From positions 7,499,542 to 7,531,541 of the forward strand of contig NZ_CP043491.1 of the NCBI RefSeq assembly GCF_044360685.1: a stretch of DNA of 32,000 bases, given 5' to 3'. Of this stretch, positions 642 through 32,000 are shown piece after piece. Made by a program: the position numbers and the translations under genes. The notes under the pieces were generated by a model, which had not been told where the DNA came from, did not search any database, and saw only the letters and a list, made by a program, of their open reading frames with translations. This DNA comes from Cystobacter fuscus (GTDB lineage: Bacteria; Myxococcota; Myxococcia; Myxococcales; Myxococcaceae). Position 1 is the first letter of the stretch. The number at the start of each line of letters is the position of its first letter.

Positions 642-1043
642 ATGAACAAGACTATCGTCCGTCGAACCACCATTGCCGTGACCGTCATGGGCCTGCTCGG
701 CCTGATGGGCTCCCTGGTCGTGCCGTCCGCCAATGCATCGCAGGTGAGCACCCTCGCCACCTGCAACGCCACCTGGTACGGAGCGGTGGGCGAAATCCCC
801 GAGGGATGGCCGACCGCCAGCGGTGAGCCCTTCCACCGAATGGCGCTCAAGGCCGCGCACAACTCCCTGCCGTTCGGCACCCGGGTCAAGGTGTCCTACC
901 AGGGCCGGTCCGTCACCGTGACCATCAATGATCGCGGAGGCTTTGGCGGCGCGACGTGCCTGGACCTCACCTACGGAGCGTTCACGCAGATCGCCAATAC
1001 CGACCTCGGCGTCATCCCCGTGCAGTACGAGATCCTCAGGTGA
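642..1043 (+). CDS. secreted RlpA-like double-psi beta-barrel (DPBB) domain protein
   Basis: ORF 498..1043 trimmed to ATG 642, with GGAAGG 5 nt upstream. A signal peptide (TIAVTVMGLLGLMGSLVVPSANA-S) is followed by WYG...ASGEPF...AAHNSLPFGTRVKV..GRSVTVTINDRGGF...LDLT, the RlpA/DPBB motif series. Confidence 0.85.
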   Translation: MNKTIVRRTTIAVTVMGLLGLMGSLVVPSANASQVSTLATCNATWYGAVGEIPEGWPTASGEPFHRMALKAAHNSLPFGTRVKVSYQGRSVTVTINDRGGFGGATCLDLTYGAFTQIANTDLGVIPVQYEILR

Positions 1044-1142
1044 GAGCACGCCGTGCGCCAGGAAGAACCCCCTCTAGCGCACAGGCGGGGCCCGCGCTTC
1101 GGTGGAGCGTGGACGGAGGGGACATGCGGCGACCCGTGCCCT

Positions 1143-1838: not shown

Positions 1839-1892
1839 CCGGAAACCCGCGCGGCCCGTCGAACAGGCGGGGGACGTGCCCTCCTCCTCGCC

Positions 1893-2768: not shown

Positions 2769-2908
2769 GGATGTTTCCTTTCAAACCGCCACCCTAATCA
2801 TTCCCGAATCCTCCCGAATCACTCGAAGGAGTGATCCATGGCTACCCCATCCAGAAATGTCTTCCCAATGACTCAGGCGATTGCCTGAAGAGGGAGGGAC
2901 GCCCGTCG

Positions 2909-4764: not shown

Positions 4765-4781
4765 TTCGTTCCCCCTGGGGC

Positions 4782-7333: not shown

Positions 7334-8243
7334 AGGCGGCCGTCAGCGCCGCGGCCAGCAACGAAGCCGCCACCATGAGGAAGACCGCCCGGCGGATGTC
7401 CTCCGCGCCCGGCTGGCGTCCTCCGGCGCCCAACCGGTAGTGCCCCACCTTCTCCAGCTCCACCCCCAGCCCTCCGGCCACCGCGGCCATGGGGCGGCCC
7501 GCGTTGGGGCTCTCGGTGGCGGCGCCGTCGCGCCACCAGGAGATCACCGCCCGGGCCGGAGAGGCACCACACAGCGCGCACGCCAGCACGAGGAGCGCGG
7601 CGGACAGGCGCGCGGGCACCAGGTTGAGGACGTCGTCCAACCGGGCGGCGGCCTTGCCCAACCACTCCAGCTCTCCACGGTAGCCAATCATCGCATCCAG
7701 GGTGTTGGCCGCCCGGTACGCGAGCGCTCCGGGGACGCCCGCCACCGCGTAGAAGAGCAGCGGCGCCACCACCGAGTCCGAGGTGTTCTCCGCCACCGAC
7801 TCCACCGCCGCCGCCGCCAACAGCGGGGGCTCGAGGCCCGAGGTGTCACGCGACACGAGGCTGCGCAAGGCGAAGCGGGCCGCGGGCGCATCCCCCTCGC
7901 TCAGCGCGCGGAAGACGGCCAGGCCCGCCTCGGCGAGGGCCCGCACCGCGAAGGCGCTCTTGAGGAGGTACACCTCGAGCGCGAGCTGCACGAGGGGCCA
8001 GGAGGAGACGAGGCGCAGCAGGGCCCACGCTCCGAGTCCGAAGACGGCGGGACCCGTCACCGCCATCACCAGGCCGTGGAGGAAAGCGGGCACGGGCGCA
8101 CGGGGCGCCAGCCGGCGCAGGCGCCGTTGCAGGCGTCCCATCCACACCACGGGGTGCAGCACCGTGGGAGGCTCGCCCCAGGCGAGGTCCACCCCGAGCG
8201 CGGCCACCAGCACCAGGACCGCATGCAGTCCCCCGTCCATCAT
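7290..8243 (-). CDS. cbiB: adenosylcobinamide-phosphate synthase
   Basis: 317-aa membrane protein with HPVVWMG, ENTSDSVVAPLFY, YRAANTLDAMIGY and NAGRPMAA motifs of the CbiB/CobD family. Its start ATG 8243 overlaps the cobU stop (ATGA). Confidence 0.9.
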   Translation of the reverse strand: MMDGGLHAVLVLVAALGVDLAWGEPPTVLHPVVWMGRLQRRLRRLAPRAPVPAFLHGLVMAVTGPAVFGLGAWALLRLVSSWPLVQLALEVYLLKSAFAVRALAEAGLAVFRALSEGDAPAARFALRSLVSRDTSGLEPPLLAAAAVESVAENTSDSVVAPLLFYAVAGVPGALAYRAANTLDAMIGYRGELEWLGKAAARLDDVLNLVPARLSAALLVLACALCGASPARAVISWWRDGAATESPNAGRPMAAVAGGLGVELEKVGHYRLGAGGRQPGAEDIRRAVFLMVAASLLAAALTAAYVYGEGFRVALASP

Positions 8244-8785
8244 CCGCCCGCCCCCACCACCCAGTGGCCCGGTTTGATCCGCAGCAGCAGCCCGAGCGCG
8301 CCGAAGTACACCTCGTCCGCCGCGGCCGCCAGGCGCTGGTGCGCTCCCCCACTCACGTCACGGAAGGTGCGTCCCAGCGGCGTCTCGGGGACGAGCCCCA
8401 TGCCGACCTCGTTGGTCACCAGGAGGGTGGCGCTCCGCCGCCGCTGGAGCACCCCCACCAGCCGATCCACCTCGCCGAGGATGCTCTCCGCCTCATCCCC
8501 CCGAAGCAGGAGGTTGGACAGCCACAGCGTCACGCAGTCCACCACCGCCACGTCCGCCGTGTCCGCTTCCAACACCTCGCACAGCCGGCGCGGCTCCTCC
8601 ACCGTCTCGAAGAGGCCGACCCGCTCCTCGCGGTGGCGCCGCGCGCGCTCGCGCATCTCGTCGTCGAAGGGCTCGGAGGTGGCGATGAAGGTGCGCCGCG
8701 TTCCCAACTTCTGGGCCAGCTCGAGCGCGAAGCGGCTCTTGCCACAGCGCACGCCACCGCCCACCAGGACGATCTTCCCGCTCAC
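8240..8785 (-). CDS. cobU: bifunctional adenosylcobinamide kinase / adenosylcobinamide-phosphate guanylyltransferase
   Basis: ORF 8240..9070 trimmed to GTG 8785..8783, which overlaps the cbiZ stop (GTGA). 181 aa with P-loop LVGGGVRCGKS, then FIAT...DDEM..R...H, VVDCVTLWLSN and LVTNEVGMGLVPE. Confidence 0.9.
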   Translation of the reverse strand: MSGKIVLVGGGVRCGKSRFALELAQKLGTRRTFIATSEPFDDEMRERARRHREERVGLFETVEEPRRLCEVLEADTADVAVVDCVTLWLSNLLLRGDEAESILGEVDRLVGVLQRRRSATLLVTNEVGMGLVPETPLGRTFRDVSGGAHQRLAAAADEVYFGALGLLLRIKPGHWVVGAGG

Positions 8786-9471
8786 CGCATCCCTCGCTCT
8801 TCCAGCCAACGGCGCACCCCGCGCGCGGTGGCCTCTCGCACCGCCCCGCCCAGCAGGCTGCCGAGCCGGGTGTGCTTGCCCATGTACTGCTCTCCTCCAG
8901 GCCCTTCCGGAGCCGCCACCACGATGCAGTCGGTGCCCGTCCCGGTGGCCACCCGCAGGGAGCGGCGGCTGGGCACTCGCGCCTCCATGAGGGCCGCCGT
9001 CCGCGCCTCCGCCCCGAGCGCCAGGGCCTCCACCAGCGCGCTCTCCGAGAGCGGATGGGACACCTGGCACAGCAGGTTGATGGTGCCCACGCTCCGCAGG
9101 GGCCCGGGCTCATCCCCGGCCGCCAACGCGTTGCCCAGCCCCACGGTGGCCACGCAGCGCGCCGAGAGCGCCCCCGAAGCGAGGTGCACGTCATCGAAGG
9201 TGGACACGTCGCGCGAGGTGAGCAGACCCACCGTCTCCTCCGGCGGCTCCTCGCCGAGGCTGGCCGTGAGGAGCGCCAGCGGATCCACGCCCGGGACGAG
9301 ATCGTCGTCACGCACCTGCCGCCACACCACCGCCCGGGCACGCCGGCGGCCTCCGTTGAGGAGAGCCCACGAGAGGACGGCGTGCGGACGGGCGAAGCGC
9401 ACCACGAGCACCCGCCCGCCTTGCTCCAGGGAGGGCGCTTCCCCCTCCGGCGTGGCGAGGGCGGCCGTCAT
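8782..9471 (-). CDS. cbiZ: adenosylcobinamide amidohydrolase
   Basis: ORF 8782..10026 trimmed to ATG 9471..9469, which overlaps the cbiA stop (ATGA). 229 aa with LSWALLNGG, VATVGLGNA, GTINLL, ATGTGTD and GKHTRLG, the CbiZ family signature order. Confidence 0.85.
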   Translation of the reverse strand: MTAALATPEGEAPSLEQGGRVLVVRFARPHAVLSWALLNGGRRRARAVVWRQVRDDDLVPGVDPLALLTASLGEEPPEETVGLLTSRDVSTFDDVHLASGALSARCVATVGLGNALAAGDEPGPLRSVGTINLLCQVSHPLSESALVEALALGAEARTAALMEARVPSRRSLRVATGTGTDCIVVAAPEGPGGEQYMGKHTRLGSLLGGAVREATARGVRRWLEERGMR

Positions 9472-10859
9472 GTCCGTTGCTCCTTGAAGGCGCGTGCCGA
9501 AGCCACGAGTCCCTCGGCGACCAGGGGGTTGGAGGCCCAGTGGGCGTGGACGTAGGAGGCCAGCACGTTGGGCGGGCCGAAGCCCTCGGTATGGATGGTG
9601 CCGCCACGACGCTTGCGGATGCGCAGCACTCCCCCCTGCTCGGGGACGCCCTCCAGCGTGGAGTAGCGGAACTGGTGCCCGCGGAAGCGCAGCCCTGCTC
9701 CGCCCAGCACGGTGCGCACCGTCGTCTCCACCTCCACGTAGCCGAGCGCCTGGAGCTTGGGCGCCATCACCGCCACTCCGGGCACCAGCCCGACCATGGG
9801 GAAGTCCCGGCCATCGAGGGTGCGGATGCCCTGGCTGAGGTACATCATCCCGCCGCACTCGGCGTAGATGGGGCCACCGCGCGCGGCGAAGTCGGAGAGG
9901 GCACGCCGCAGGGACTGGTTGTCGGCCAGCCGCCGCGCATGCAGTTCCGGGTAGCCGCCTCCGAGATAGACGGCGTGCACGTCCGGAGGAAGTGCCTCGT
10001 CCGCCAGCGGCGAGAAGGGCACGCACTGGGCGCCGAGCCGCTCGAGCCGCCGCAGGTTGTCCGCGTAATAGAAATGGAAGGCGGCATCCTGGGCCACCGC
10101 GATGCGGCAGGTGACGGGGGCCTCGGAGCGGTCTTCCGCTGGTGCCTCTGGCAAGGCCGGAGCCTCTCGCGCGAGGCGAAGGAAGGCCTCCGGATCATTC
10201 CATTCGGCGAGCAGCGTGCCCCAGGCATCGAGGTTGCGCGTGGGGATGCTCTCCTCGGAAGCGGTGAGCAGGCCCAGGTGGCGCTCGGGGAAGGCGAGTG
10301 ACTCCTGGGCGGGCAGTCCCCCCACCACGGGCACCGCCGTGCCACGCGCCGCGCGCTGGAGCAGCTCCAGGTGGCTGCGGCTGCCCACGCGGTTGGCGAA
10401 GAGGCCCGCCACCTTCAACTCCGGATCAAAGGCCGCCAGCCCGGTGCCGATGGCGGCGATGGTGCGCGCCATGCCCGAGACATCCACCACCGCGAGAACG
10501 GGCGCCGCCAGCCACTTGGCCACCTGCGCCGCCGAGCCCTCCTCCGAGTCCGGCGAGGCCCCGTCATAGAGCCCCATCACCCCCTCGATGAGCGCCACGT
10601 CGTGGCCCTGGCTGGCGTGCCGGAAGGTGGAGACGACGGCATCGCGGCCCATCAGCCAGCCATCGAGGTTGTGGCACGGCGCCCCGGAGGTGCGCGCGTG
10701 GTAGCTCGGATCGAGGTAGTCCGGACCGCACTTGAAGGTGGCCACCTTCAGGCCGCGCGCCTGGAGCGCCCGGGTGAGCGCCACCATGACGGTCGTCTTG
10801 CCCACGCCGCTGGACGTGCCCGCCACCACCAGCCGGGGAATCAGGAGGGCGCCGTCCAT
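9468..10859 (-). CDS. cbiA: cobyrinate a,c-diamide synthase
   Basis: 463 aa. Has N-terminal VVAGTSSGVGKTTV and KCGPDYLDPSYH, plus a C-terminal GATase domain YAECGGMMYL. Start ATG 10859 shares one nt with the cobO stop (TGATG). Confidence 0.92.
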   Translation of the reverse strand: MDGALLIPRLVVAGTSSGVGKTTVMVALTRALQARGLKVATFKCGPDYLDPSYHARTSGAPCHNLDGWLMGRDAVVSTFRHASQGHDVALIEGVMGLYDGASPDSEEGSAAQVAKWLAAPVLAVVDVSGMARTIAAIGTGLAAFDPELKVAGLFANRVGSRSHLELLQRAARGTAVPVVGGLPAQESLAFPERHLGLLTASEESIPTRNLDAWGTLLAEWNDPEAFLRLAREAPALPEAPAEDRSEAPVTCRIAVAQDAAFHFYYADNLRRLERLGAQCVPFSPLADEALPPDVHAVYLGGGYPELHARRLADNQSLRRALSDFAARGGPIYAECGGMMYLSQGIRTLDGRDFPMVGLVPGVAVMAPKLQALGYVEVETTVRTVLGGAGLRFRGHQFRYSTLEGVPEQGGVLRIRKRRGGTIHTEGFGPPNVLASYVHAHWASNPLVAEGLVASARAFKEQRT

Positions 10860-11389
10860 CAGAAGTCGAGCCCCACCTGCGCGGGAATGCCCTTCTCGAA
10901 GGGATGGCGCACGTTGCGCATCTCGGTGACGAGCTCCGCCGCCGCCACCAGGGGCTCCGGAGCGGAGCGCCCGGTGATGATCACATGCACGTGGGAGGGG
11001 CGTGCCGCCAGCGCCTCCATCACCTCGTCCACGGGGACGAAGCCGTAGTTGAGCACGTACGTCAGCTCATCGAGCACCACCACCTCGTGCTCGCCGCTCG
11101 TCATCAACCGCCGGGCCTCGGCCCACGCCTCCTGGGCGGCCCGCTTGTCCCGGGAGATGTCCTCGCTCTCCCAGGTGAAGCCCCGTCCCATGGTGAGGAA
11201 GACGAGCCCGGGAATGCTCTCCGCGTAGGTGCGCTCGCCCGTCTTCCACTTGCCCTTGATGAACTGCACCACCGCGGGCTTCATCCCCCGGCCGAGCGCG
11301 CGGAACACCACGCCGAGCGCGGCCGTGGTCTTCCCCTTGCCATCTCCCGTGTAGACGACCAGCAGTCCCTTCGTCGGTCTCGCGTTCAT
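10859..11389 (-). CDS. cobO: cob(I)yrinic acid a,c-diamide adenosyltransferase (CobA/CobO/BtuR type)
   Basis: ORF 10859..11593 trimmed to ATG 11389..11387, which overlaps the upstream stop (ATGA). 176 aa with YTGDGKGKTTAALG, VVQFIKG, VVLDELTY and ITGR motifs. Confidence 0.9.
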   Translation of the reverse strand: MNARPTKGLLVVYTGDGKGKTTAALGVVFRALGRGMKPAVVQFIKGKWKTGERTYAESIPGLVFLTMGRGFTWESEDISRDKRAAQEAWAEARRLMTSGEHEVVVLDELTYVLNYGFVPVDEVMEALAARPSHVHVIITGRSAPEPLVAAAELVTEMRNVRHPFEKGIPAQVGLDF

Positions 11390-12714
11390 GTCCCACGCTC
11401 CTGTCGTTCGAACCACGAGAGGCGCTCGCGCAGCCGCACCACCTCGCCCACCACCACCAGGGCCGGCGGCCCCAGCACGTTCTGCTCCCGCACCCGCTCG
11501 GCGAGCGTCTCCAGGGTGCCCACCACCACCACCTGCTCGGGCGAGGTGGCCGCGGCGATGTAGGCCGCGGGCGTCTGGGGGCTGCGTCCACACTCCACCA
11601 GCCGGGCCAGGTTGGCCGCGAGCTTCCGGGTGGCCATGAAGAGCACCAGCGTGCCCGCGGCCACGCCCAGCTTCTCCCAGTTCGTGAGGCTGCGAGGCCC
11701 CTCGAGGTCGTGCCCCGTGACGAAGGAGACGTCGGAGGCGTACTGCCGGTGGGTGAGCGGGATGCCGGCGCAGGCGGCGGCTCCGAGCGCGGCCGAGATG
11801 CCGGGCACCACCTCGTAGGCAATGCCCGCCTCGAGCAACTCCTCCGCCTCCTCACCGCCTCGCCCGAAGATGAACGGATCTCCCTGCTTCAAGCGCACCA
11901 CGTGCCGCCCGGCGCGGGCCCGCTCGAGCACCGCCGGGTGCAGCCGGTAGCCCGCCTGGGTGGAGCCCTGGTTGCGGTGGCCCACGAGGATGCGTTCCGC
12001 CTGGGGGCCGATCTCCGCGAGCACCGCCGGGGGGATGAGGGCGTCGTAGGCCACCACCTCCGCCTGTTGCAGCAGGGTGCGCGCCCTCACGGTGAGCAGT
12101 CCCGGATCGCCCGGCCCCGCGCCCACCAGGGACACGAAGCCGCCCCGGCGCTCGTCCCGCCCACGCCCGAGCGCCTCCTCGCAGAAGCGCACCCGCTCCT
12201 CCAGCGAGGCGCTCGAGTCCGGAACGAAGTGCAACCGCGAGGCTGAGACGGAGCGGCGCAGGAGCGACTCGAGGACGAGCTGGTAGCGCATCTCGTCCAT
12301 CGGGCTGTCACTCCGGACGCCGTCCCGCTCATAGGGGATGACGCCCCAGGGAAGGACGAAGACGGCGTCGTAGTGGCCCCCGGGCGCTGGAGACTCGAAG
12401 AACTCCGGGATGAGCTCCGCGCACCCGTGCTGGAGCGCATAGGCGGCGAAGTCCGTGGCGCAGTTGTCCGCCACGAAGCCCTCGTGCCGCTCCTCCTCGC
12501 GCCGCCGGCGCACGGACCACAATTCCCGGAGCACCCGCGCGCGCTCGGGCACGGGCAACTGCGCCAGGCGCGTGCCGGTGCGCAGGACGAACTCCCGCGT
12601 CTCCTCGGGGACAAGGGGCAGCCCGAGGCGGCTCGCCAGCGCGTTCACGAGCGTCGTCTTCCCCACCCCGGCCGCGCCGGTGATGGCAATGCGCCACGGC
12701 CGCTCAGGGCGCAT
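11386..12714 (-). CDS. cobA: fusion protein: N-terminal P-loop NTPase/kinase-like domain (NadR C-terminal / AAA_28-like) plus C-terminal uroporphyrinogen-III C-methyltransferase (SUMT)
   Basis: A single 442-aa ORF with no internal stop. Residues 1-190 carry Walker A ITGAAGVGKTT, VPEETREF, FVADNCATDFAAY, YDAVFVLPWGVIPYERDGVR and LEERV. Residues 195-442 carry LVGAGPGDPGLLT, RLKQGDPFIFGRGGEE and VVPGISAALGAAA, the tetrapyrrole methylase fold. Confidence 0.85.
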   Translation of the reverse strand: MRPERPWRIAITGAAGVGKTTLVNALASRLGLPLVPEETREFVLRTGTRLAQLPVPERARVLRELWSVRRRREEERHEGFVADNCATDFAAYALQHGCAELIPEFFESPAPGGHYDAVFVLPWGVIPYERDGVRSDSPMDEMRYQLVLESLLRRSVSASRLHFVPDSSASLEERVRFCEEALGRGRDERRGGFVSLVGAGPGDPGLLTVRARTLLQQAEVVAYDALIPPAVLAEIGPQAERILVGHRNQGSTQAGYRLHPAVLERARAGRHVVRLKQGDPFIFGRGGEEAEELLEAGIAYEVVPGISAALGAAACAGIPLTHRQYASDVSFVTGHDLEGPRSLTNWEKLGVAAGTLVLFMATRKLAANLARLVECGRSPQTPAAYIAAATSPEQVVVVGTLETLAERVREQNVLGPPALVVVGEVVRLRERLSWFERQERGT

Positions 12715-13471
12715 CTTCCGTCCCCTTCCGGAAGCGATGGGTGAAGGTCGGGTCGTACAGGCGCGAGTTGGCGAAGTCCTTCGCCTCCAGCACCTCGCCC
12801 ACCAGGATCATCGCGGTCGCGTTGATGCGCTCGGCGCGCACCTTGTCGCCAATGTCCGCCAGCGTGCCGCGCACCACCTTCTGATCCGGCCAGGTGGCCT
12901 TCTGCACCACCGCGACGGGACAGTCCGGCCCGTAGGAGGGCAGCAGCTTCTCCACCACGTCACGGATGAGGCCCGCGCTGAGGAAGAGCGCCAGGGTGGC
13001 ACGGTGGCGCGCCAGATCCTCCAGCTTCTCTCCCTCCGGCATGAGGGTGCGTCCCTCGGCGCGGGTGACGATGACCGTCTGCGACAGCTCGGGCAGCGTC
13101 AGCTCCTTGCCCAGCACCGCAGCCGCGGCGGTGAAGGAGGACACCCCCGGGATGATCTCGTAGGGAATGCCGAGCTCGACGAGCCTGCGCATCTGCTCCG
13201 CGGTGGAGCCGAAGATGGACGGATCTCCCGTGTGCACGCGGGCTACGTCCTGATCCGCGGCATGGGCCTCCTTGAGGACGTCGATGATCTGCTCGAGCGT
13301 CATGGACGAGGAGTCGAGCACCCGCGCATCCGGCCGGGCCCGGGCGATGACCGCCTGCGGGACGAGCGAGCCGGTGTAGAGCACCACGGGGCACTGCTCG
13401 ACGAGCTCGGCCCCGCGCACGGTGATGAGCTTCGGATCTCCGGGTCCGGCACCGATGATGTAGACCTTCAT
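12704..13471 (-). CDS. cbiF: cobalt-precorrin-4 C11-methyltransferase
   Basis: 255 aa with IIGAGPGDPKLITV, HTGDPSIFG and IIPGVSSFTAAAA. GGAG SD lies in the 10-nt gap after orf131. Confidence 0.92.
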   Translation of the reverse strand: MKVYIIGAGPGDPKLITVRGAELVEQCPVVLYTGSLVPQAVIARARPDARVLDSSSMTLEQIIDVLKEAHAADQDVARVHTGDPSIFGSTAEQMRRLVELGIPYEIIPGVSSFTAAAAVLGKELTLPELSQTVIVTRAEGRTLMPEGEKLEDLARHRATLALFLSAGLIRDVVEKLLPSYGPDCPVAVVQKATWPDQKVVRGTLADIGDKVRAERINATAMILVGEVLEAKDFANSRLYDPTFTHRFRKGTEDAP

Positions 13472-23641: not shown

Positions 23642-24450
23642 GGCGTGGCGGGTGCGGCGGGAAGCGCGTGGAACTTCAAGAGGGCGGGCCGGCGGCGGGA
23701 GATGAAGACGACGGCGCCGGCGGTGAAGGCCCCCTCGAGCAATCCGAGCGGAAGCTGGGTGGGGAGGAAGGAGAGCAGCAGGGTGCCCAGCGTGGTGCTC
23801 AGCGGTTGGGCGCCGTGCAGCGCCGAGGCCAGCTCGAAGGACGTCATGGCGTAGGTGGCCCAGTCGGAGAACATGCCCGCGGCGAAGGCCGCCACTCCGA
23901 GCGAGGCGCGCAGGGAGCGCAGTCCGTGGAAGATGGCGTAGCCGACGAAGCCGCCCACCACGCCCATGGACCAGATGTCGGCGCCCAGGGTGGTGAGCCC
24001 TCCGTGGGCGAGGAAGAGCGCTTGCAGCAACAGCGCCACGAACGTCACCAGCACGGTCATCACCGGGCCGATGAGCACGGCGGCGAGCCCCGTGCCACAC
24101 GGGTGCGAGCAGGTGCCGATGATGGGAACCGGCACGGGCATGCAGGAGACGACGAAGACCGCGGCGGCGAGCATCGCCACGAAGGGCGAATAGAGCGGGC
24201 TCTGGGCCATGCGCTGGCGCAACCGCGTGACGCCCAGCGCGAGCAAGGGCAGCACGGAGAGCGTCCAGCCCGCGGCCCACCCGAAGGGAAGGATGCCCTC
24301 CGCCAGGTGCATGGCATGCGCGGGATGAGGCAGCAGCAACAGGACGAGTGCCGCGAGCCCCGCGCTCGGAGGGAGAGGTGCTGATTGAAGGCAGGCCTGG
24401 ACGCAATGCCGGAGGACGGCACCACACCCACGCCCGGAGAAACCCGGCAT
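23638..24450 (-). CDS. cbiM: cobalt ECF transporter substrate-capture (S) component
   Basis: 270 aa. A 46-aa leader ends in a signal-peptidase-like AHA site directly before MHLAEGILP, the conserved Met-His N-terminus of mature CbiM/NikM. Seven hydrophobic segments. ATG 24450 lies 6 nt after GAGCGAGG and directly downstream of the riboswitch. Confidence 0.9.
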   Translation of the reverse strand: MPGFSGRGCGAVLRHCVQACLQSAPLPPSAGLAALVLLLLPHPAHAMHLAEGILPFGWAAGWTLSVLPLLALGVTRLRQRMAQSPLYSPFVAMLAAAVFVVSCMPVPVPIIGTCSHPCGTGLAAVLIGPVMTVLVTFVALLLQALFLAHGGLTTLGADIWSMGVVGGFVGYAIFHGLRSLRASLGVAAFAAGMFSDWATYAMTSFELASALHGAQPLSTTLGTLLLSFLPTQLPLGLLEGAFTAGAVVFISRRRPALLKFHALPAAPATP

Positions 24451-24487
24451 GGCAACCTCGCTCTCAATCCACGGAGAGATGGGTCGA

Positions 24488-24685
24488 ACAGCCCTGGGTA
24501 GGTCTCCTGGCTCGTGGATTCAGAGCGCCTGACGGCGTTCAGCGCCACCTCCACCTTCCCCGACGCCGAGGCATCGAGTGGTGACTTCGGAGGTAGCTCC
24601 CCACTGACAGTGGCGGGACCGCGCCGGACTCACACCGGCTTCCCTGTTATGCCCGTGATAGCGGGCACCCCTGGCTATGGATTCA
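24488..24685 (-). promoter_or_regulatory. cobalamin (AdoCbl) riboswitch
   Basis: The minus strand reads ...CCAGGGGTGCCCGCTATCACGGGCATAACAGGGAAGCCGGTGTGAGTCCGGCGCGGTCCCGCCACTGTCAGTGGGG...GAATCCACGAGCCAGGAGACCTACCCAGGG. This contains the conserved GGGAAGCCGGTG.GA.TCCGGCGCGGTCCCGCCACTGT core and the B12 box GCCAGGAGACCT.CC. A CTCTC-N8-GAGAG hairpin downstream overlaps the cbiM SD region. Confidence 0.92.
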
Positions 24686-24694
24686 ATTGTCGGG

Positions 24695-24727
24695 GGCCAA
24701 GTACCGGAGGCGGCGCGCTTCTGTCAA
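24695..24727 (-). promoter_or_regulatory. candidate sigma-70-type promoter for the riboswitch/cbiM operon
   Basis: A perfect TTGACA sits at 24727..24722 (minus strand), followed after 17-18 nt by GTACTT/TACTTG. The riboswitch begins about 15-20 nt further on. The -10 match is weak, as is usual in high-GC genomes. Confidence 0.35.
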
Positions 24728-24756
24728 CGGAATGCGCCCCCCCTTTTTCTCAAGGA

Positions 24757-25404
24757 CTAAGCATTCCACCACTGGTTCTCCCAGATCAGCTCGTCCAGCG
24801 TCCGGCGCGAGTCCCAACCTTCCAGTTCCAACATCGGCCGCTCATAGAAGGCATCGACATGGCCCAGGCACAGGATGGCGATCGGCTCACTGCCTTCCGG
24901 TGCCCTCAACAACTCCGCCAGCCGGGTGGGCTCGAAGAGTGACACCCAGCCCATGCCAATCCCCTCGGCCCGTGCGGCGAGCCAGAGGTTCTGGATGGCG
25001 CAGCTCGCGGAGGCGAGGTCCATGTTCGGCATGGTGCGCCTGCCGAACACGTAACGCTCGCGTTGATCCATCAGCGCCACGACCCAGAGCTCGGGACATT
25101 CCTTGATGCCCTCGACCTTGAGCCGCAGGAACTCCTCGCCCCGAGCGCCCAACGCCTCGGCGGTACGCGCGCGCTCCTGCTCGACCAGCGCGGCGATGTC
25201 ACCGCGCAGCCGCGCATCCGTGATGCGAATGAAACGCCACGGTTGCATGAAGCCGACGCTCGGCCCGAGATGCGCCGCATGGAGCAGCCGCGCCATGATC
25301 TCCTGAGCGATGGGATCGGACCGGAAGTGGCGCATGTCCCGGCGTTCGCTGATCGCGCGGTAGACGGCTTCTCGTTCCGCGGGAGAAAAGCGGTGTTTCG
25401 TCAT
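24757..25404 (-). CDS. bluB: 5,6-dimethylbenzimidazole synthase
   Basis: 215 aa of the nitroreductase fold, with ERREAVYRAI-like FSPAEREAVYRAISERRDMRHF, GPSVGFMQPWRF, NMDLASASCAIQNLWLAARAEGIGMGWVS and CLGHV, matching the BluB subfamily pattern. Confidence 0.92.
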   Translation of the reverse strand: MTKHRFSPAEREAVYRAISERRDMRHFRSDPIAQEIMARLLHAAHLGPSVGFMQPWRFIRITDARLRGDIAALVEQERARTAEALGARGEEFLRLKVEGIKECPELWVVALMDQRERYVFGRRTMPNMDLASASCAIQNLWLAARAEGIGMGWVSLFEPTRLAELLRAPEGSEPIAILCLGHVDAFYERPMLELEGWDSRRTLDELIWENQWWNA

Positions 25405-25472
25405 GAATCGTCAAGCCCCTGGCAAGCCCTTTCTCGCGGCGCTCCATACCACCGCTCGCCCTGCCCGGCGGC

Positions 25473-26108
25473 TCAGCCGAACGTCATGTTCATCAACTTC
25501 ACGATGGGCACGTCCCCGTGGAAGTCGATGATGTTCACCGCCGAGTACCCCTGCTCCAGCCGGAACAGGTGGGCGTCCGGCAGGCCCAGCGCCTCGGCGA
25601 GCAACGTCCGGTTCACGCCGCCGTGCGACACCAGCACGAACGTCTCTCCCGCTTGCCGCGAGCGCAGCGCCCGGGCCGCCGACGACACCCGCTCGCGCAG
25701 CTCCGGGTAGCTCTCGCCCTCCGGGAAGCGCACCCGCGTGGGATACGCCATCCACTCCGCGAAGACCTCGGGGTAGCGCTTCTCCACCTCTTCATAGGTG
25801 AGGCCCTCGAGCAGACCGAAGTCGAGTTCCTGGAACGCCGCCTCCGTGTCCACCGCCAGCCCCTTGAGTTGCGCCAGCGGGGCCGCGCTCTCCACCGCGC
25901 GCCGCAGCGGGCTCGCGTAGACGCGTGACAGGGGGGCCTCGGCCAGGAACCGCGCGGCGTGCTCGGCCTGCACCCGGCCCGAGGAGGACAGCCCCACGTC
26001 CAGCCGCCCGTAGCACCGGCCCCGCGCTTCCTCCACCGGCTGCCCGTGCCGCACCAGCACCATGCGCGTCACGCCCTTCGCGAGTCGCCAGTCCACGTTC
26101 GCTCCCAT
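25473..26108 (-). CDS. cobC: histidine phosphatase family protein, probable alpha-ribazole-5'-phosphate phosphatase
   Basis: 211 aa with the catalytic LVRHGQ (RHG) and LVSHGGV motifs of the phosphoglycerate-mutase-like superfamily. The function is inferred from adjacency to bluB. A strong SD GGAGGAGGAGGGGAGG lies 5-7 nt upstream of ATG 26108. An alternative start M16 sits at 26063. Confidence 0.7.
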   Translation of the reverse strand: MGANVDWRLAKGVTRMVLVRHGQPVEEARGRCYGRLDVGLSSSGRVQAEHAARFLAEAPLSRVYASPLRRAVESAAPLAQLKGLAVDTEAAFQELDFGLLEGLTYEEVEKRYPEVFAEWMAYPTRVRFPEGESYPELRERVSSAARALRSRQAGETFVLVSHGGVNRTLLAEALGLPDAHLFRLEQGYSAVNIIDFHGDVPIVKLMNMTFG

Positions 26109-26130
26109 CGTGCCTCCCCTCCTCCTCCAT

Positions 26131-27387
26131 TCAAGGGGCTCCGAACGTATCCTCCCAAAGCTGCTGCCCCTCGGGGGACAGCCCGAAGGTCCACAGGTCC
26201 GTTTTGCCCGCCCCCTTGGAGTTCGTCACGCCCACGACCACGAGGCTCTCATCCGCCAGGCGCGCGATGCCGTTGCCCATGTCGTTTCCATCTCCCTCAT
26301 AGGTCCGCTGCCAGAGCAGGTGGCCGTCCGCGGAGAAACGCCAGACCTTGGCCTCCCGGTCGACCAGCAGTTCCTTCCAGGAGTAGCCCGTCACGGCGAT
26401 TCCCCCATCGGGCAAGACGGTCAAGGCCCGGCCTGCCTCCGCCTGGGGATCATCGGGAACGTAATCCCAGAGAAGCGTGCCTCGAGGATCCATGCGGACG
26501 ACCCAGAGCGACCCATCCGGAGAGTCCGGACGGCTCCGTCGACCTGTCGCGACGAGCCCTCCATCCGGCAGCAAGGCGAGCGCGTTCAGCTCTCCCTGGC
26601 CCTCGACCGGCAGTTGCTGCTCCGCGGTGGCCCGGCCATCGGATTGCAGCAGCAACAGCCTCGAGATTCCCAATCCGGTGGTCGAGGTCTCCGCCGTTCC
26701 CATGACGGCCACACGCTGAGCGGGGAGCGACACCAGGGCGGTGATGTGCTCGAGCCGTGGAAGATTCACTTCCCAGAGCAGCTCGCCCTGGGTGCTCACC
26801 CGCACCACCCAGCCCGCTCCGTCCTGGTCTCCGCCCGCGACAATGGATCCATCCTCGAGCACCGAGACGGCATTGAATCCGTTGAGGCCTTCGTGGCCCG
26901 GGGTTCGCTCCCAGAGCGTCTCTCCGTCCGGGGAGAGCGCGAGAAGCCATCCTCGGAATCGGCCTACCGCGACCTGCTCCTCTCCCGCGACGACGAGCCC
27001 CCCTCCTGGCAGCAAGGCGATGGCTCGGCCCAGGGTGGCGGTGCCGAGTGCTCTCGTTCCATAGACCTTCTCCCAGCGGGGGGGCGGAGCCTTATTGAAG
27101 TGGAGCACCCAGGCTTGCCGAACCCCGGGTTGACGGGAGTTGGTGTGGCCGACCACGGAGAATCCGCTTCCGGTCGCGACGATCCCCTCGGCCGACTCGT
27201 GTCCAGTGCTGTTGCGCCGCTCGACTTCTCGCGCCCAATCCAGGTCATCGTGTCCTATCGTCGGAGGAAGCACCGCGCTCGTCCGAGACCAGAAGAGGAG
27301 CGCCGCGATCAGCAGCCCCAGGGCAGCCAGTGCCACCCTCCATCCAAGTGTCCCGGGGACGTCGTTCTTGGGAACCGTTGTGCCCAC
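26131..27387 (-). CDS. membrane-anchored seven-repeat beta-propeller-like protein (PQQ/BamB-like repeats), unknown function
   Basis: ORF 26131..27417. The preferred start is GTG 27387..27385, which shares one nt with the upstream TAG (TAGTG) and lies 11-15 nt after AAGGAGCGGAG. An N-terminal TM helix (WRVALAALGLLIAALLFW) is followed by seven repeats of about 43-46 aa of the form LLPDGG-hVhhG ... G..LW (e.g. ALLPGGGLVVAG..DGETLWERT, TVLPDGGIAVTG..DGHLLWQRT). Confidence 0.7.
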   Translation of the reverse strand: MGTTVPKNDVPGTLGWRVALAALGLLIAALLFWSRTSAVLPPTIGHDDLDWAREVERRNSTGHESAEGIVATGSGFSVVGHTNSRQPGVRQAWVLHFNKAPPPRWEKVYGTRALGTATLGRAIALLPGGGLVVAGEEQVAVGRFRGWLLALSPDGETLWERTPGHEGLNGFNAVSVLEDGSIVAGGDQDGAGWVVRVSTQGELLWEVNLPRLEHITALVSLPAQRVAVMGTAETSTTGLGISRLLLLQSDGRATAEQQLPVEGQGELNALALLPDGGLVATGRRSRPDSPDGSLWVVRMDPRGTLLWDYVPDDPQAEAGRALTVLPDGGIAVTGYSWKELLVDREAKVWRFSADGHLLWQRTYEGDGNDMGNGIARLADESLVVVGVTNSKGAGKTDLWTFGLSPEGQQLWEDTFGAP

Positions 27388-28832
27388 TAAAACCAACTCC
27401 GCTCCTTGGTAACCCACTGCGTGCGCAGCGGCTCGGGCAGCCCCAGATCCCTAACGGCCTCCAGGATGGTGTCATCGTCACAGACGAGGGTGAAGATCCG
27501 CTGCCATTCCGGAGTATGAAGCCTGTTCTTCTCGGCCTGACTGAAGGGGCGGATGATGGGGGCGAGCTCGCTGTACCGTAGGCCAATCCACGGCCCATTG
27601 TTTTCCCCACCAATGTATCCGCTCAGGAAACGCATCTGTGCCTCAAGGCTGATGCGCCAAGTGCTCAGAAGGGAGAACACGACTGAACGGGAGCCGAGAC
27701 GGCAACGCACGGAGTAACGGTCCCCATCGGGTCTCCGATCCCGTAGGAGTTCGGCCTGTTCGGCGGTCGTCAGCCGCCGCAGGAGCGCATCAACTTGTTC
27801 ACCGAGCCACCTCGCGCCAACGCCGCCACCATCGAGCGCGGCATCGAGCCGGTGGAGGTTGGGACGAGTGCGCACTCGGCTCAGCTCGGTGCCACTCTTG
27901 TAACCGGCCGAGACCGTTGGGCGCTTGTCGACCGCCGGGTTGTAGCCCGTGCCGCCAGGGGTGAACAGATTGCCCAGGGTCATTCCGTAGTGCCAGCGAT
28001 CATCAATGGAAGTAAGCGCGGTGCCCGTGAAGGCGGGGACGCGGCCTCCCCGGACATAAGGCAGCTCTTCCTTCACCTCGGCGCCAGGTGAGACGTGCGC
28101 GACGGCACCAGGCAGCCCTTGAAGGCGAGCAATCCGGTTGAGCTGGGTGCGCGTGGCTTGGGAGACCCCATCGTAGAGCGGTTGGATGAGGGTCTGCTCC
28201 TCGGAGAGGGTGCGCATGTCCCACTCAAAGGCGGGACGGCCTTGAAGCTGGCGCGCCACGAGTTCATGCAGTTTGGGAAAGACGTTGTCGAAGATGACCT
28301 GATTGCCCTCGCGCATCATCCCCTGAAGCTCATTGCCGACAGTCCCAGCCATATGGCCCAGGTCCTCTATGGCCGCGTTCATGATGGCGACTTCATGCGC
28401 ACCTGTGGCCACGATGGACGCAGCGAGCGCCCACCGCGCCTCGCACCCCTGGTCGACCGAGTATTTGTAGAACCAGAGATAGAAATCCCGTCGCTCAATG
28501 ATGCGCGTGTAGCGACGGAAGTTGTTCGCCTTCAGGTTGTAGAGGCATGCATCCTGCCAGCGTTGAGTGCGATTCACCCGATCGCTTTCCGTCCAGTCTC
28601 CTGGAGAGGACGGTGTGCTGCTGGATAGGCTCGGGCCCTCCACCTTGCGCAGCGACATGTTCTTCGCAAGGCGAGTCTGTGCGGGAAGGAGCTGAGGCTG
28701 CGCGGTCTTGAGCAGTGTCACGAGGTGAGCCGAATTGGATGGGCAGATGGGTATCCGATTCTGGAACTGACGCTTGCAGCTACGACACTCAAAAGTATTC
28801 ACGCGTCGCGTTCCCCCGAAGTCCCCACTCAT
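27387..28832 (-). CDS. hypothetical protein, Cys-containing N-terminus, no recognised domain
   Basis: ORF 27387..28892 (501 aa from a GTG). The preferred start is ATG 28832 (MSGDFGG...), because a terminator and promoter-like sequence occupy 28833-28960. The N-terminus FECRSCKRQFQNRIPICPSNSAH has a C-x2-C-x10-C-x5-H arrangement, followed by a Ser/Pro linker and a domain of about 400 aa with no motif I can place. GC is 56-59% in two 100-nt hand counts, versus about 74% in the B12 genes. Confidence 0.65.
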   Translation of the reverse strand: MSGDFGGTRRVNTFECRSCKRQFQNRIPICPSNSAHLVTLLKTAQPQLLPAQTRLAKNMSLRKVEGPSLSSSTPSSPGDWTESDRVNRTQRWQDACLYNLKANNFRRYTRIIERRDFYLWFYKYSVDQGCEARWALAASIVATGAHEVAIMNAAIEDLGHMAGTVGNELQGMMREGNQVIFDNVFPKLHELVARQLQGRPAFEWDMRTLSEEQTLIQPLYDGVSQATRTQLNRIARLQGLPGAVAHVSPGAEVKEELPYVRGGRVPAFTGTALTSIDDRWHYGMTLGNLFTPGGTGYNPAVDKRPTVSAGYKSGTELSRVRTRPNLHRLDAALDGGGVGARWLGEQVDALLRRLTTAEQAELLRDRRPDGDRYSVRCRLGSRSVVFSLLSTWRISLEAQMRFLSGYIGGENNGPWIGLRYSELAPIIRPFSQAEKNRLHTPEWQRIFTLVCDDDTILEAVRDLGLPEPLRTQWVTKERSWF

Positions 28833-28915
28833 GTGTGCCCAGACGACGACTATCCATCGCGAGGAACCGTGCCAGCAAGCGCCGTTCACCACCTACGCCT
28901 CTAACTGGCCCGGCC

Positions 28916-28960
28916 CTGAAAACACGAACGCCCGGGAGCCCCAACGAGGGCCACCGGGCG
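28916..28960 (-). terminator. candidate intrinsic terminator downstream of the phasin-like gene
   Basis: The minus strand reads CGCCCGG-tggccctcgttggggct-CCGGGCG followed by TTCGTGTTTTC. This is a GC-rich 7-bp outer stem (with extra inner pairs) and a T-rich tail, 29 nt after the TAA stop at 28989. Confidence 0.5.
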
Positions 28961-28988
28961 GCTTCGTCTCCAACGGGGGATTCGCAGC

Positions 28989-29849
28989 TTACGCCTTGGG
29001 CGTCTCCTGCTGCTTCGGCTCCGCCGGCTTCGCGGGCGACACGAGCGAATCCAGCCGGCTCGTCAGCCGATCCAGCTCGCGGTTGATCGCGCTCACCTGG
29101 GACTGGCTCGCCACCCCGCCCACCACCTGGATCATCTGGCTGCGCAGCCCCGTCAGCCGCTGACGCACCTCACCGCCCACCCAGCTCGCCTGCTTCTCCA
29201 GCTTCTGCACGGTGGGGTTGGCGCGCAGATCGTTCACGTTCAGCATCCCCAGCACCTCGCGGCGCGACTCCCGGCCGATCGTCGCCAGCGTCTGCAGCGC
29301 CTTCTGCGCATCCGCCTCGATCTGCCCCAGCTGCTTCTGGGCCTGCTCCAGGCGCACCTTCACGAAGGACGCCACCTGACCCGCCGCCTCGGTCACCGCC
29401 GTCTCGGCCTTGGCCGCCTCGGCCTTGGCCGCCTCGGCCGCCTTGCCCGCGGCCGCCTCGGCCTTGCCCGCGGCCTCGGCCACCGTCTGGGCCGCCTTCT
29501 GCGCCACGGCCTCCACCTTCTCCGCCGCCTTCTGCGCCACGGCCTCCACCTTCTCCGCCGCCTTCTGCGTCACGGCCTCCGCCTTCTCGACGGCCTTCTG
29601 CGCCGCGGCCTCCACTCGGCCCGCGGCCGTCTGCGCCGCGTTCTCCGCCACCACGGCCGCCGTCTGCGCCGCGGCCTCCGCCGCAACCGCCGTCTCACTC
29701 ACCGTCTGGGCCGCCTCACTCACCGTCTCGGCCGCCGTCTGCGCCGCGGCCTCCACCTTCTCCTCCACGTCCTTCACCGGCTGTGCGGGCTCGGCGGCCT
29801 GGGGAGCGTGCGACTGATGGGATTTCGAGTGCTTGTGGTGCTTCGCCAT
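28989..29849 (-). CDS. phasin-like / coiled-coil protein with Ala-rich 11-residue tandem repeats
   Basis: 286 aa. The N-terminus MAKHHKHSKSHQSH is His/Lys-rich. The central region holds A/E/K/Q/V-rich repeats (AEKVEAVAQKA x3 exact). The C-terminal 110 aa end in ...VASQSQVSAINRELDRLTSRLDSL, resembling the C-terminus of PHA-granule phasin family proteins. GGAGG SD lies 11 nt upstream of ATG 29849. Confidence 0.7.
   Translation of the reverse strand: MAKHHKHSKSHQSHAPQAAEPAQPVKDVEEKVEAAAQTAAETVSEAAQTVSETAVAAEAAAQTAAVVAENAAQTAAGRVEAAAQKAVEKAEAVTQKAAEKVEAVAQKAAEKVEAVAQKAAQTVAEAAGKAEAAAGKAAEAAKAEAAKAETAVTEAAGQVASFVKVRLEQAQKQLGQIEADAQKALQTLATIGRESRREVLGMLNVNDLRANPTVQKLEKQASWVGGEVRQRLTGLRSQMIQVVGGVASQSQVSAINRELDRLTSRLDSLVSPAKPAEPKQQETPKA
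29491..29622. repeat. 33-bp tandem repeat (about 4 copies, first two identical) inside the phasin-like gene
   Basis: GCCGCCTTCTGCGCCACGGCCTCCACCTTCTCC occurs at 29491-29523 and again at 29524-29556. Progressively diverged copies sit at 29557-29589 and 29590-29622. The repeat is in frame (11 codons). A wider degenerate Ala-codon repeat zone spans about 29400-29770. Confidence 0.85.
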
Positions 29850-29882
29850 GTGTTTGAAACCTCCGCAAGGGTAAGTACCCCA

Positions 29883-29911
29883 GTGCTAACGCGTCGCGTT
29901 AGGGCCGTCAA
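29883..29911 (-). promoter_or_regulatory. candidate promoter of the phasin-like gene with a palindromic operator in the spacer
   Basis: The minus strand reads TTGACG (29911..29906), a 17-nt spacer, then TAGCAC (29888..29883). The spacer holds the perfect 8-1-8 palindrome CTAACGCG-T-CGCGTTAG (29886-29902). Confidence 0.35.
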
Positions 29912-30014
29912 CCCCCCATGACGCGATGAGACGAGAATCAGGCGGCTTCCGACTCCAGCGGGCCGGCGTGTTAGCTCTGGTGCCTCCTCTCCCACCCCTC
30001 CGGAGAACCCATCC

Positions 30015-32000
30015 ATGCGTCAGCTCTTCTTCACCGGCGCGGGCATCCTGGTGCTCGCCTCCGCCGCCTGCACGGCGACATCCCACGAGGGGCGTGGGGC
30101 CGACCCCACCGTTCCCGCAACCCCCCCAGCGCCCACCATGTCTCCTTCCTCGGAAACGACGTCGTCCCAGACGAACCCGCTGTTGGATCAATGGTCCGGA
30201 CCCTATGGCGGCGTGCCGGCCTTCAATCGAATCCGCATCGAGCACTTCCGGCCCGCGCTCGAGACGTCGATGAACGAGTACCGCCGGGAGATCGCCGGCC
30301 TGGCGAACGAGCCGGCGGCGCCGACCTTCGAGAACACGATCGCCGCGTTCGAGCGGCTCGGGCAGCGCTTCGAGGAGGTGAGCACCCTCTATGGCATCTG
30401 GAGCTCGTCGCTCAACGGGCCGGAGTTCCAGATCATCGAGCGGGAGATGGCTCCCCGGCTCGCGGCGCTCTCCGACGAGATCATCCAGAACGAGCGGCTG
30501 TTCCAGCGCATCGCGGCCGTCTACGAGTCGCCCGACAAGGCGAAGCTGACGCCCGAGCAGCAGCGCCTGGTGTGGCACCACTACACGCGCTTCGTGCGCT
30601 CGGGGGCGCGGCTCGACGCGGAGAAGAAGAAGCAATTGTCGGCGCTCAACCAGCGCCTCGCGTCGCTCTACACGAGCTTCGGCCAGAACGTGCTGGCCGA
30701 CGAGGAGGGCTACGCCGTGGTGCTCGAGTCGGAGAAGGACCTCGACGGACTGCCCGACTCGGTGCGCGCGGGCGCGGCGGCGGCGGCCTCGTCGCGGGGG
30801 CTGGCGGGCAAGTGGGCCATCACCAACACGCGCTCGTCCATGGAGCCCTTCCTGACGTACTCGCGCCGCAGGGATCTGCGCGAGAAGGTCTGGCGCCACT
30901 ACGTCAACCGGGGTGACAACGGGGACACGCACGACAACAACGCGATCATCACCGAGATCCTCCAGCTGCGTGCCGAGCGGGCCCAGCTCCTGGGCTACGC
31001 CACCCATGCCCACTGGCGGCTGGAGAACACCATGGCCCGCACGCCCGAGCGTGCCATGGCGCTGATGGAGGCCGTCTGGAAGCCCGCCGTCGCGCGCGTG
31101 CGCCAGGAGGTCGCCGACATGCAGGCGCTCGCCACGAAGGAGGGCGACAAGATCACCATCGAGCCCTGGGACTACCGCTACTACGCCGAGAAGGTGCGCA
31201 AGGCGAAGTACGACCTGGACCAGAATGAGGTGAAGCCCTACCTGCAGCTGGAGAAGCTGCGCGAGGCGATGTTCTGGGTGGCCGGCGAGCTGTTCGGCTT
31301 CACCTTCACCCCGGTGAACGACGTGCCCGTGTACCACCCGGACGTGCGCGTCTGGGAGGTGAAGGACAAGGCCCAGGGCAAGCACGTGGGCCTGTGGTAC
31401 TTCGATCCCTATGCCCGGCCGGGCAAGCGCTCCGGGGCGTGGATGAACGCCTATCGCTCGCAGGAGCGCTTCCGGGGGGAGATCACCACCATCGTCTCCA
31501 ACAACGCCAACTTCGTGAAGGGCCAGCCGGGCGAGCCCGTCCTCATCAGCTGGAGCGACGCGGAGACGCTGTTCCACGAGTTCGGCCATGCGCTGCACGG
31601 CCTGAGCTCCGACGTGAACTACCCCGCGCTGTCGGGCACCAACGTGGTGCGTGACTACGTGGAGTTCCCCTCGCAGCTGCTCGAGCACTGGCTGGACACG
31701 CCCGAGGTGCTCAACACCTACGCCCTGCACTACCAGACGGGAAAGCCCATTCCTCCCGAGCTCGTCGCGAAGATCGCCAAGGCGGCCACCTTCAACCAGG
31801 GCTTCGCCACGGTGGAGTACCTGTCGAGCGCGCTCGTGGACATGAAGCTGCACCTGGCGGGCACGAAGAAGATCGATCCGGACGCGTTCGAGCGCGACAC
31901 GCTCCAGGGGCTCGGCATGCCCAAGGAGATCGTCATGCGCCACCGCACGCCCCAGTTCGGCCACGTCTTCGCGGGGGACGGCTACTCGGCGGGCTACTAC
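30015..32000 (+). CDS. dcp: M3-family peptidyl-dipeptidase (Dcp-like) lipoprotein, 3'-partial
   Basis: Hand translation from ATG 30015 (GGAGAA 9 nt upstream) stays open for 662 codons to the window end, so it is missing from the ORF track. The lipoprotein signal MRQLFFTGAGILVLASAAC is followed by ...NPLLDQWSGPYGGVPAFNRI..., ...FDPYARPGKRSGAWMN... and the zinc motif LFHEFGHALHG, typical of Dcp/oligopeptidase A. Confidence 0.9.
   Translation, partial: MRQLFFTGAGILVLASAACTATSHEGRGADPTVPATPPAPTMSPSSETTSSQTNPLLDQWSGPYGGVPAFNRIRIEHFRPALETSMNEYRREIAGLANEPAAPTFENTIAAFERLGQRFEEVSTLYGIWSSSLNGPEFQIIEREMAPRLAALSDEIIQNERLFQRIAAVYESPDKAKLTPEQQRLVWHHYTRFVRSGARLDAEKKKQLSALNQRLASLYTSFGQNVLADEEGYAVVLESEKDLDGLPDSVRAGAAAAASSRGLAGKWAITNTRSSMEPFLTYSRRRDLREKVWRHYVNRGDNGDTHDNNAIITEILQLRAERAQLLGYATHAHWRLENTMARTPERAMALMEAVWKPAVARVRQEVADMQALATKEGDKITIEPWDYRYYAEKVRKAKYDLDQNEVKPYLQLEKLREAMFWVAGELFGFTFTPVNDVPVYHPDVRVWEVKDKAQGKHVGLWYFDPYARPGKRSGAWMNAYRSQERFRGEITTIVSNNANFVKGQPGEPVLISWSDAETLFHEFGHALHGLSSDVNYPALSGTNVVRDYVEFPSQLLEHWLDTPEVLNTYALHYQTGKPIPPELVAKIAKAATFNQGFATVEYLSSALVDMKLHLAGTKKIDPDAFERDTLQGLGMPKEIVMRHRTPQFGHVFAGDGYSAGYY

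Follow-up and report, generated by a model that had tools for sequence, protein, structure and literature searches.

Type VI secretion systems (T6SS) have cargo effectors that are paired with periplasmic immunity proteins, for example in the Tse1-Tsi1 or Tle-Tli type, and Rhs proteins carry their toxin domains at the position that follows the Rhs DPxG motif. In the toxins associated with extracellular contractile injection systems (eCIS), also known as "PVC-metallopeptidase" polymorphic toxins, the published layout places a C-terminal toxin behind a DUF4157 domain (Geller et al. 2021, PMC8213781; Danov et al. 2024, PMC11297309; Zhang et al. 2012, PMC3482391). Here, we describe a pair of overlapping genes, termed gene A and gene B, in a stretch of 32,000 nucleotides from Cystobacter fuscus (assembly GCF_044360685.1, contig NZ_CP043491.1, positions 7,499,542 to 7,531,541 of the forward strand), called the window below and numbered from its first letter. 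The pair lies directly upstream of cobC and bluB, two genes for the lower ligand of vitamin B12. With moderate confidence, we read it as an antibacterial toxin domain encoded together with a membrane-anchored protector, whose adjacency to cobC would be accidental.

Both genes are on the minus strand, where the list of open reading frames (ORFs) contains 27387..28892 (501 aa) and 26131..27417 (428 aa). Since all homologs of gene A start with MNTFECRSC and since GGGGGA precedes the GTG at 28802, gene A probably starts at this codon and thus covers 27387..28802 (471 aa, not 501), within an open frame that extends to 28892. Gene B occupies 26131..27387 (418 aa plus the stop) and encodes the putative immunity protein. 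Its GTG at 27387 overlaps the TAG stop of gene A at 27389-27387 (TAGTG), and its start lies no further downstream than 27387, as the N termini of its homologs (..RRRLGWR followed by a transmembrane [TM] helix) require.

We then looked for relatives of gene A. No family scored above the cutoff in Pfam (2025 copy), NCBIfam, or PADLOC, the last of which contained no family at an E value of ≤0.01 for either gene A or gene B. A match of gene A to Phage_tail_terminator_5 (E value of 0.004, 17.7 bits for a cutoff of 27) was discarded as noise. A word index yielded 125 homologs, and a profile search against 1.84 billion representatives yielded 498 matches, which divide the protein into a core and a C-terminal module. 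The core forms the last ∼200 to 240 residues of proteins of 1000 to 2800 aa. Pfam analysis of five such long proteins identified DUF6443 in three, one of which has RHS_repeat as well, and in all eight long proteins examined (8/8) the core starts 10 to 25 residues after the Rhs core motif ...YDxxxRxYDPxxGRxxSxDPL...NPxxFxDPxG(L/M/R). Among the 56 aligned word-index homologs, 26 have an N-terminal DUF4157/eCIS_core domain instead of the zinc ribbon found in gene A (see below). One DUF4157 homolog, P0075 from a Micromonospora assembly, is encoded inside a complete eCIS locus, with a sheath, two tube genes, CIS_tube, a GPD/base_V spike, Pvc16_N, an AAA ATPase, and a GerE regulator. Since the core is found both at the C terminus of Rhs proteins, after the DPxG motif, and behind DUF4157, it bears the signature of a polymorphic-toxin tip.

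The AlphaFold2 model of gene A, built from an alignment of 56 sequences (pLDDT of 90.4, pTM of 0.82), shows a three-strand zinc-ribbon-like element (residues 1 to 32), a disordered linker (residues 35 to 60), and an all-alpha body. The zinc-ribbon-like module (28707..28802, minus strand; pLDDT of ∼91) has the pattern C-x2-C-x10-C-x5-H, takes the place of the DUF4157 domain of the relatives, and keeps its Cys and His residues in the stand-alone homologs from Archangiaceae. The core, a putative toxin domain, is all-alpha and spans residues ∼68 to 310 (27873..28601, minus strand; pLDDT of >90). The invariant polar residues N89, Y98, R104, Y108, N167, D195, E202, Q203, Y210, and R269 are among those conserved across its Rhs-tip, DUF4157-linked, and stand-alone forms. 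The C-terminal helical module (residues ∼320 to 471, profile positions 320 to 472; 27390..27845, minus strand) is an optional part of the proteins: the Rhs tips lack it, as do some of the DUF4157 forms and P0075 and P0070, and it occurs as 3 to 9 tandem copies in P0241, P0232, P0217, P0268, P0248, and others. This module of ∼150 aa may be an uncharacterized repeat of eCIS-associated proteins. Several of the tandem-module proteins carry DUF4157, and some have weak DUF6362 matches. A Foldseek search with the gene A model returned no match in the PDB (best E value of 0.6, TM score below 0.22) or in BFVD (best E value of 1.6), nor did the PDB sequences yield a relative in a profile search (best E value of 0.79). 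Gene A has no signal peptide.

The model of gene B (AlphaFold2, pLDDT of 90.7) consists of a basic N-terminal tail, a single TM helix, and a beta-propeller. The helix comprises residues 14 to 36 (27280-27348, minus strand), a segment that is conserved in the homologs, and is followed by the propeller (residues ∼62 to 418), which contains a conserved NSTGHE segment and which, from the positive-inside rule, is predicted to face the periplasm. The best fold match is the propeller of CylK (TMq of 0.72 to 0.74, E value of ∼1e-19, 18 to 19% identity). A match of gene B to the delta-60 repeat was below threshold, and JGI labels some of the homologs BamB.

Evaluation of gene order revealed a tight linkage between the two genes. 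In a survey of 201 genomes of the family, 9 have a match to gene A and 11 a match to gene B, and every intact A has B immediately downstream; in a sample of 401 genomes from the phylum, the matches are confined to this family. Beyond the survey, B-type genes lie directly downstream of stand-alone A genes and of DUF4157-fused A homologs, down to ∼44% identity in A. Next to the DUF4157-fused homologs, which are 44 to 66% identical to A, the B-type protein has 53% identity to gene B in locus L035 and 36% in L037, and in L043 it is related with an hhalign probability of 100%. The L037 locus (2992-13192), on a soil metagenome contig, contains three DUF4157 (eCIS_core) proteins in an array (1291, 461, and 689 aa), with a 229-aa gene after the first of them and the B-type gene after the last, which is the gene A homolog. 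In its layout, this array looks like stacked toxin/immunity cassettes.

The linkage is asymmetric. We found B alone as a third copy in the C. fuscus genome itself (termed G000) and in genomes G113 and G192, B in tandem in G101 and G113, and B next to remnants of A that contain stop codons in G004 and G097. A further case comes from G007, where the pair is located at the same cobC site as in the window. There, residues 21 to 301 of A are replaced by 1.5 kb of DNA with 55% GC (L028:3673-5207; G007:C2 ∼5684170-5685700), in a genome that is 93% complete and for which an assembly error is possible at this place. Gene B of G007 has one frameshift near residue 103, and most of it persists. The 1.5-kb replacement has two ORFs (257 and 273 aa) with no Pfam matches and no similarity anywhere in G000. 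Retention of the partner together with loss of the effector fits the pattern displayed by immunity genes.

These features bear on an alternative, according to which the pair is a non-antagonistic envelope module that serves in trans-membrane signaling or surface remodeling. The core of A would then be a harmless enzyme or cargo, likewise carried by Rhs and DUF4157 proteins. The absence of a recognizable toxin fold or motif in A and the large size of gene B, whose best match is the propeller of an enzyme, are in keeping with such a role. In addition, two reports indicate that DUF4157 proteins associated with actinobacterial contractile injection systems can have developmental rather than killing roles (PMC11126660; 10.1101/2025.11.06.686954), a precedent for this alternative. 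However, orphan and tandem copies of B beside decayed copies of A fit immunity better than an obligate two-part machine, the distribution of the genes is patchy, and the core follows the Rhs DPxG cleavage motif, the place of Rhs toxin domains. We therefore regard an envelope module as unlikely and a toxin with its immunity protein as the better explanation.

The genomic positions of the other copies point to a mobile unit. G000 is a single contig of 11.85 Mb, in which a second pair lies at 9.70 Mb (73 to 74% amino acid identity for A and 72 to 73% for B) and the lone gene B lies at 10.80 Mb. At the DNA level, similarity among the copies is limited to 26130-28807, which corresponds to the two ORFs, and they have no flanking sequence in common. 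Across the genus, copies occupy five or six unrelated chromosomal sites, and within G000 they occupy three places. In G005, G002, G004, and G007, a cassette or its remnant is located between blocks that are syntenic with further positions of G000 (0.29, ∼5.6, and 7.60 Mb), the site at 0.29 Mb being used in both G005 and G007. The distribution of the cassette is thus patchy, multi-site, and non-syntenic.

The neighbors at the two paralogous loci are genes of a defense type. At the locus of the second pair, L014:5857-7740 (G000:C1 ∼9697856-9699739) encodes an AAA_21 ATPase, AriA/PtuA-like according to PADLOC, fused to a methyltransferase. At the locus of the lone gene B, L015:9924-11684 (G000:C1 ∼10798923-10800683) encodes an HATPase_c_3 protein that resembles REase_II and weakly matches SduA_C (Shedu). 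These neighbors, together with a homolog elsewhere that adjoins a type I restriction-modification system, are what speaks for the pair being an intracellular defense or toxin-antitoxin-like system, such as one for abortive infection, that operates inside the producer cell. Against this, toxin cassettes and defense genes often reside in the same variable islands. Moreover, neither A nor B matches PADLOC, the bulk of gene B is predicted to be periplasmic and would be kept away from a cytoplasmic A, and export is suggested by the architectures of the relatives, with the core as Rhs tip or eCIS payload. Defense within the producer cell is therefore quite improbable in our view, and we retain the interpretation of an exported toxin domain and its protector.

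We then examined how the pair came to be located next to cobC, using a comparison within the genus that was anchored on BluB and on the downstream M3 peptidase. In G005 and G001 the site is empty, with cobC located 74 to 75 bp from the terminator of the phasin-like gene and no pair between them. In G007 the pair occupies this site too (95 to 96% DNA identity), and in G003 the same point is filled by ∼46.7 kb of foreign DNA (L029:1647-10001 and L030:1-8309; G003:C1 ∼7805146-7851810). The G003 insert encodes a nonribosomal peptide synthetase (C-A-PCP-reductase, with a TubC-type docking domain), a polyketide synthase (KS-AT-DH-KR-ACP), and a methyltransferase. Since this large insertion is found at the very same site, the spacer between cobC and the phasin-like gene is a recurrent integration hot spot. 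The preliminary description had considered a passenger insertion and had proposed a look at syntenic loci. In G005 and G001, cobC does abut the phasin-like gene where the pair is absent, and these empty sites, along with the copies at unrelated chromosomal sites, establish that the pair is an acquired passenger insertion, an accessory mobile cassette. The event placed a cassette of 2.8 kb (∼26116-28905) between cobC and the terminator of the phasin-like gene, in an intergenic site that is variable.

The extra DNA in the window extends from ∼26096/26116 to 28905/28911. Comparison with G005, G001, G003, and G007 places the left junction and a rebuilt 5' end of cobC at 26096..26130 (minus strand). 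Relative to the empty sites, 30 nt of the cobC leader, flanked by CCA microhomology, are deleted, and the native Shine-Dalgarno (SD) sequence and ATG are gone. The former ATG of cobC is now a GTG and a new ATG is located four codons upstream, such that MGANV-DWRLAK replaces M-DWRLAK; the new SD sequence, at the junction, is part of the inserted DNA or borders it. G007 has the same rebuilt start of cobC, with 9 nt fewer of the GGAGGAGGA run. On the other side, an insert-specific leader (28803..28911, minus strand), the presumed promoter region of gene A, is absent from the empty sites. It is not common to the paralogs either, as DNA homology stops at 28807 and the upstream regions align only over the ribosome-binding site and the start codon. 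A scan of 24400-30100 for promoter and terminator consensus sequences gave no sites, including no sigma-70 consensus for the gene A leader.

Just outside the insertion, at 28916..28960 (minus strand), is the GC-rich hairpin that had been pointed out as terminator-like, followed by GUGUUUUC. It does fold, with a z score of only -1.2, and was not called by a simple terminator scan. Since it is conserved in genomes that do not have the pair, we assign it to the phasin-like gene as its terminator. No integrase or transposase ORF was present in the stretch examined (ORF list, with Pfam on five genes), and the junctions displayed no flanking direct or inverted repeats, no target-site duplication, and no terminal inverted repeats. 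Our ORF, Pfam, and junction comparisons thus agree with the preliminary description, which had reported no integrase, transposase, or flanking direct repeats.

Downstream of the pair, the stop codon of gene B (26131-26133) is separated by 22 nt, GGAGGAGGAGGGGAGG, from the ATG of the cobC-like gene at 26108. This spacing, like the overlapping ORFs with TAGTG at 27387, had been described previously, and all of these elements are present in the sequence. The cobC-like gene encodes a histidine phosphatase that scores 155 bits, slightly below the cutoff of 162.9 of the cobC equivalog, and the assignment of BluB is clear (256 bits for a cutoff of 150). Since the native leader of cobC is lost and the 22-nt spacer contains no terminator, transcription of the cassette probably continues into cobC-bluB, a prediction made from the geometry of the junction.

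This arrangement had led to the suggestion of an envelope function linked to the handling of 5,6-dimethylbenzimidazole (DMB) and alpha-ribazole, that is, of the lower ligand, or of corrinoids, with the pair coregulated with cobC-bluB. Two observations could be cited in its favor, namely, that the pair directly adjoins cobC, into which it probably reads through, and that BtuG-type propellers (8okv and 8p97) are among the fold matches of gene B, with TMq values of 0.51 to 0.52. We rejected gene B as a corrinoid-binding propeller of the BtuG type: these matches rank 24th or lower, at 10 to 11% identity, compared with a TMq of 0.73 for CylK, and reflect generic propeller similarity. The context argues in the same direction. 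G005, G001, and G003 keep cobC-bluB without the pair, all the other copies and the homologs are located in unrelated contexts that contain no B12 genes, and the pair is decaying in G007 at the very same cobC site. A location of the pair at unrelated loci had been named beforehand as an argument against a role in B12 metabolism, and this is what we found. The B12 gene context of the pair is not conserved, its position beside cobC-bluB is incidental, and a function in lower-ligand or corrinoid handling is hardly credible. The pair should consequently not be counted among the lower-ligand genes. Its insertion rebuilt the start of cobC and probably changed the transcription of cobC-bluB in this strain.

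The base composition of the cassette was evaluated against that of the genome (68.6% GC). The pair had been presented as a module of lower GC content. This holds for gene A, which at 61.8% GC is at the ∼4th percentile of genome windows of the same size, whereas gene B, at 66.4% (∼22nd percentile), is unremarkable; A and B together have 64.1% GC (7th to 9th percentile). At third codon positions, the GC content (GC3) is 72.8% for gene A (∼14th percentile) and 77.8% for gene B (∼20th percentile), with a median of 87.9% for long ORFs, taken from a crude reference set of 6329; cobC and the phasin-like gene have GC3 values of 94% and 95%, respectively. The paralogous copies have the same composition as the pair in the window. 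The GC depression of the pair is therefore modest but real, with gene A as the sole outlier. Positions 1-3000 of the window also have a lower GC content (62 to 65%, compared with 70 to 76% in the B12 genes that follow).

Taking the toxin and protector interpretation as a basis, we propose that gene A represents the C-terminal domain of a polymorphic toxin in free-standing form, in which a zinc ribbon and a disordered linker precede an all-alpha core of ∼250 aa and a helical module of ∼150 aa. The protein would be delivered into neighboring cells, where its site of action would be the periplasm or the outer face of the inner membrane. Gene B, translationally coupled to gene A, would be anchored in the inner membrane, would expose its propeller to the periplasm, and would bind and block the incoming core of A in kin cells. 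Since A lacks a signal peptide and export is predicted for B, the pair would follow the logic of contractile-system effectors that act on the envelope. As for the route, an eCIS sheath and DUF4157 are both missing from the genome, which has two T6SS TssC genes, and delivery as cargo of one of these two T6SS, perhaps via the zinc ribbon, is therefore a guess.

Several points weigh against this proposal. We infer toxicity and protection from homology and linkage, and the core of gene A has no counterpart among known toxin or enzyme folds and displays no recognizable catalytic motif. The stand-alone A is without a known trafficking domain in a genome without eCIS, and the T6SS genes are far from the cassette (TssC at 6.30 and 7.85 Mb, compared with 7.53 Mb). 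The linkage with B also has its exceptions, since some A homologs outside the Myxococcota, including stand-alone forms from actinobacteria, have no B-type neighbor, one has an unrelated Ank-like gene downstream, and another has no downstream gene on the same strand. Gene B, with ∼400 aa, is far larger than typical immunity proteins. Finally, many PVC-type toxins come without immunity genes, according to Zhang et al. (PMC3482391). A more specific version of the proposal, which we put forward tentatively, is that the core would be an enzyme or effector of a previously unseen all-alpha fold that would hit a target in the periplasm or envelope and be neutralized by the large tethered propeller, and that the Archangiaceae would have swapped the DUF4157 or Rhs carrier for loading through the zinc ribbon, for example, onto the T6SS.

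As a finding about B12, the locus is ordinary, being a passenger insertion, and as a candidate effector family, it is moderately interesting. The 498 matches define an uncatalogued toxin-tip family that is common to Rhs and eCIS/DUF4157 carriers, with a confidently predicted fold that has no solved relative. Together with the conserved beta-propeller partner, this makes A and B a concrete candidate for an effector/immunity pair, and the core a possible payload that has moved between delivery systems.

Among the systems outlined at the beginning, the eCIS-associated toxins share their layout with the DUF4157-fused homologs of gene A, one of which is located within an eCIS locus. Gene A of the window differs from them in having no DUF4157. 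Neither gene A nor any other part of the genome contains this domain (PF13699), and we found no Phage_sheath_1 in this single-contig genome, which is 100% complete, whereas control genomes gave matches. As the genome contains neither DUF4157 nor a Phage_sheath_1 sheath, gene A cannot be eCIS cargo in this organism. With the T6SS effector/immunity pairs, the cassette shares an effector without a signal peptide, an exported or membrane-anchored downstream partner, and coupled genes, and the genome has two full-length VipB/TssC genes, at least 330 kb from the cassette. It differs in that Pfam identified no MIX, FIX, or PAAR marker in gene A and that the cassette was not seen to be linked with vgrG, hcp, paar, or an adaptor gene, the window and the paralogous loci not having been scanned exhaustively for them.

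On the side of the partner, the propeller of gene B superposes best on that of CylK, within a group that includes delta-60-repeat and BamB-like propellers. CylK has an N-terminal domain that gene B does not have. BamB has a lipoprotein signal, whereas gene B has a TM anchor and a gene context that is fixed to gene A.

The Rhs polymorphic toxins, whose C-terminal tip is released behind the DPxGL core motif and which are accompanied by downstream immunity genes, also share features with the cassette. A homologous core is found at the tip of RHS_repeat/DUF6443 giants, 10 to 25 residues after DPxG(L/M), and both have a tightly linked downstream partner with orphan partner copies. The differences are that gene A in the window is without an Rhs shell, PAAR, or any other trunk and stands alone with a zinc-ribbon N terminus, that its putative toxin fold is unlike anything solved, and that its partner is a membrane-anchored propeller of ∼400 aa, compared with a small soluble protein in Rhs systems. 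Judged by what characterizes polymorphic toxins in general, the core is placed at the extreme C terminus behind different trunks (Rhs/DUF6443 and DUF4157), with the window copy standing alone; a B-type gene follows immediately downstream of intact A in the 201 family genomes and of DUF4157-fused homologs; and there are orphan and tandem copies of B and decayed remnants of A. By these features of sequence and gene order, the cassette appears to behave as one of the polymorphic toxin/immunity type, with a propeller as an atypical putative immunity protein.

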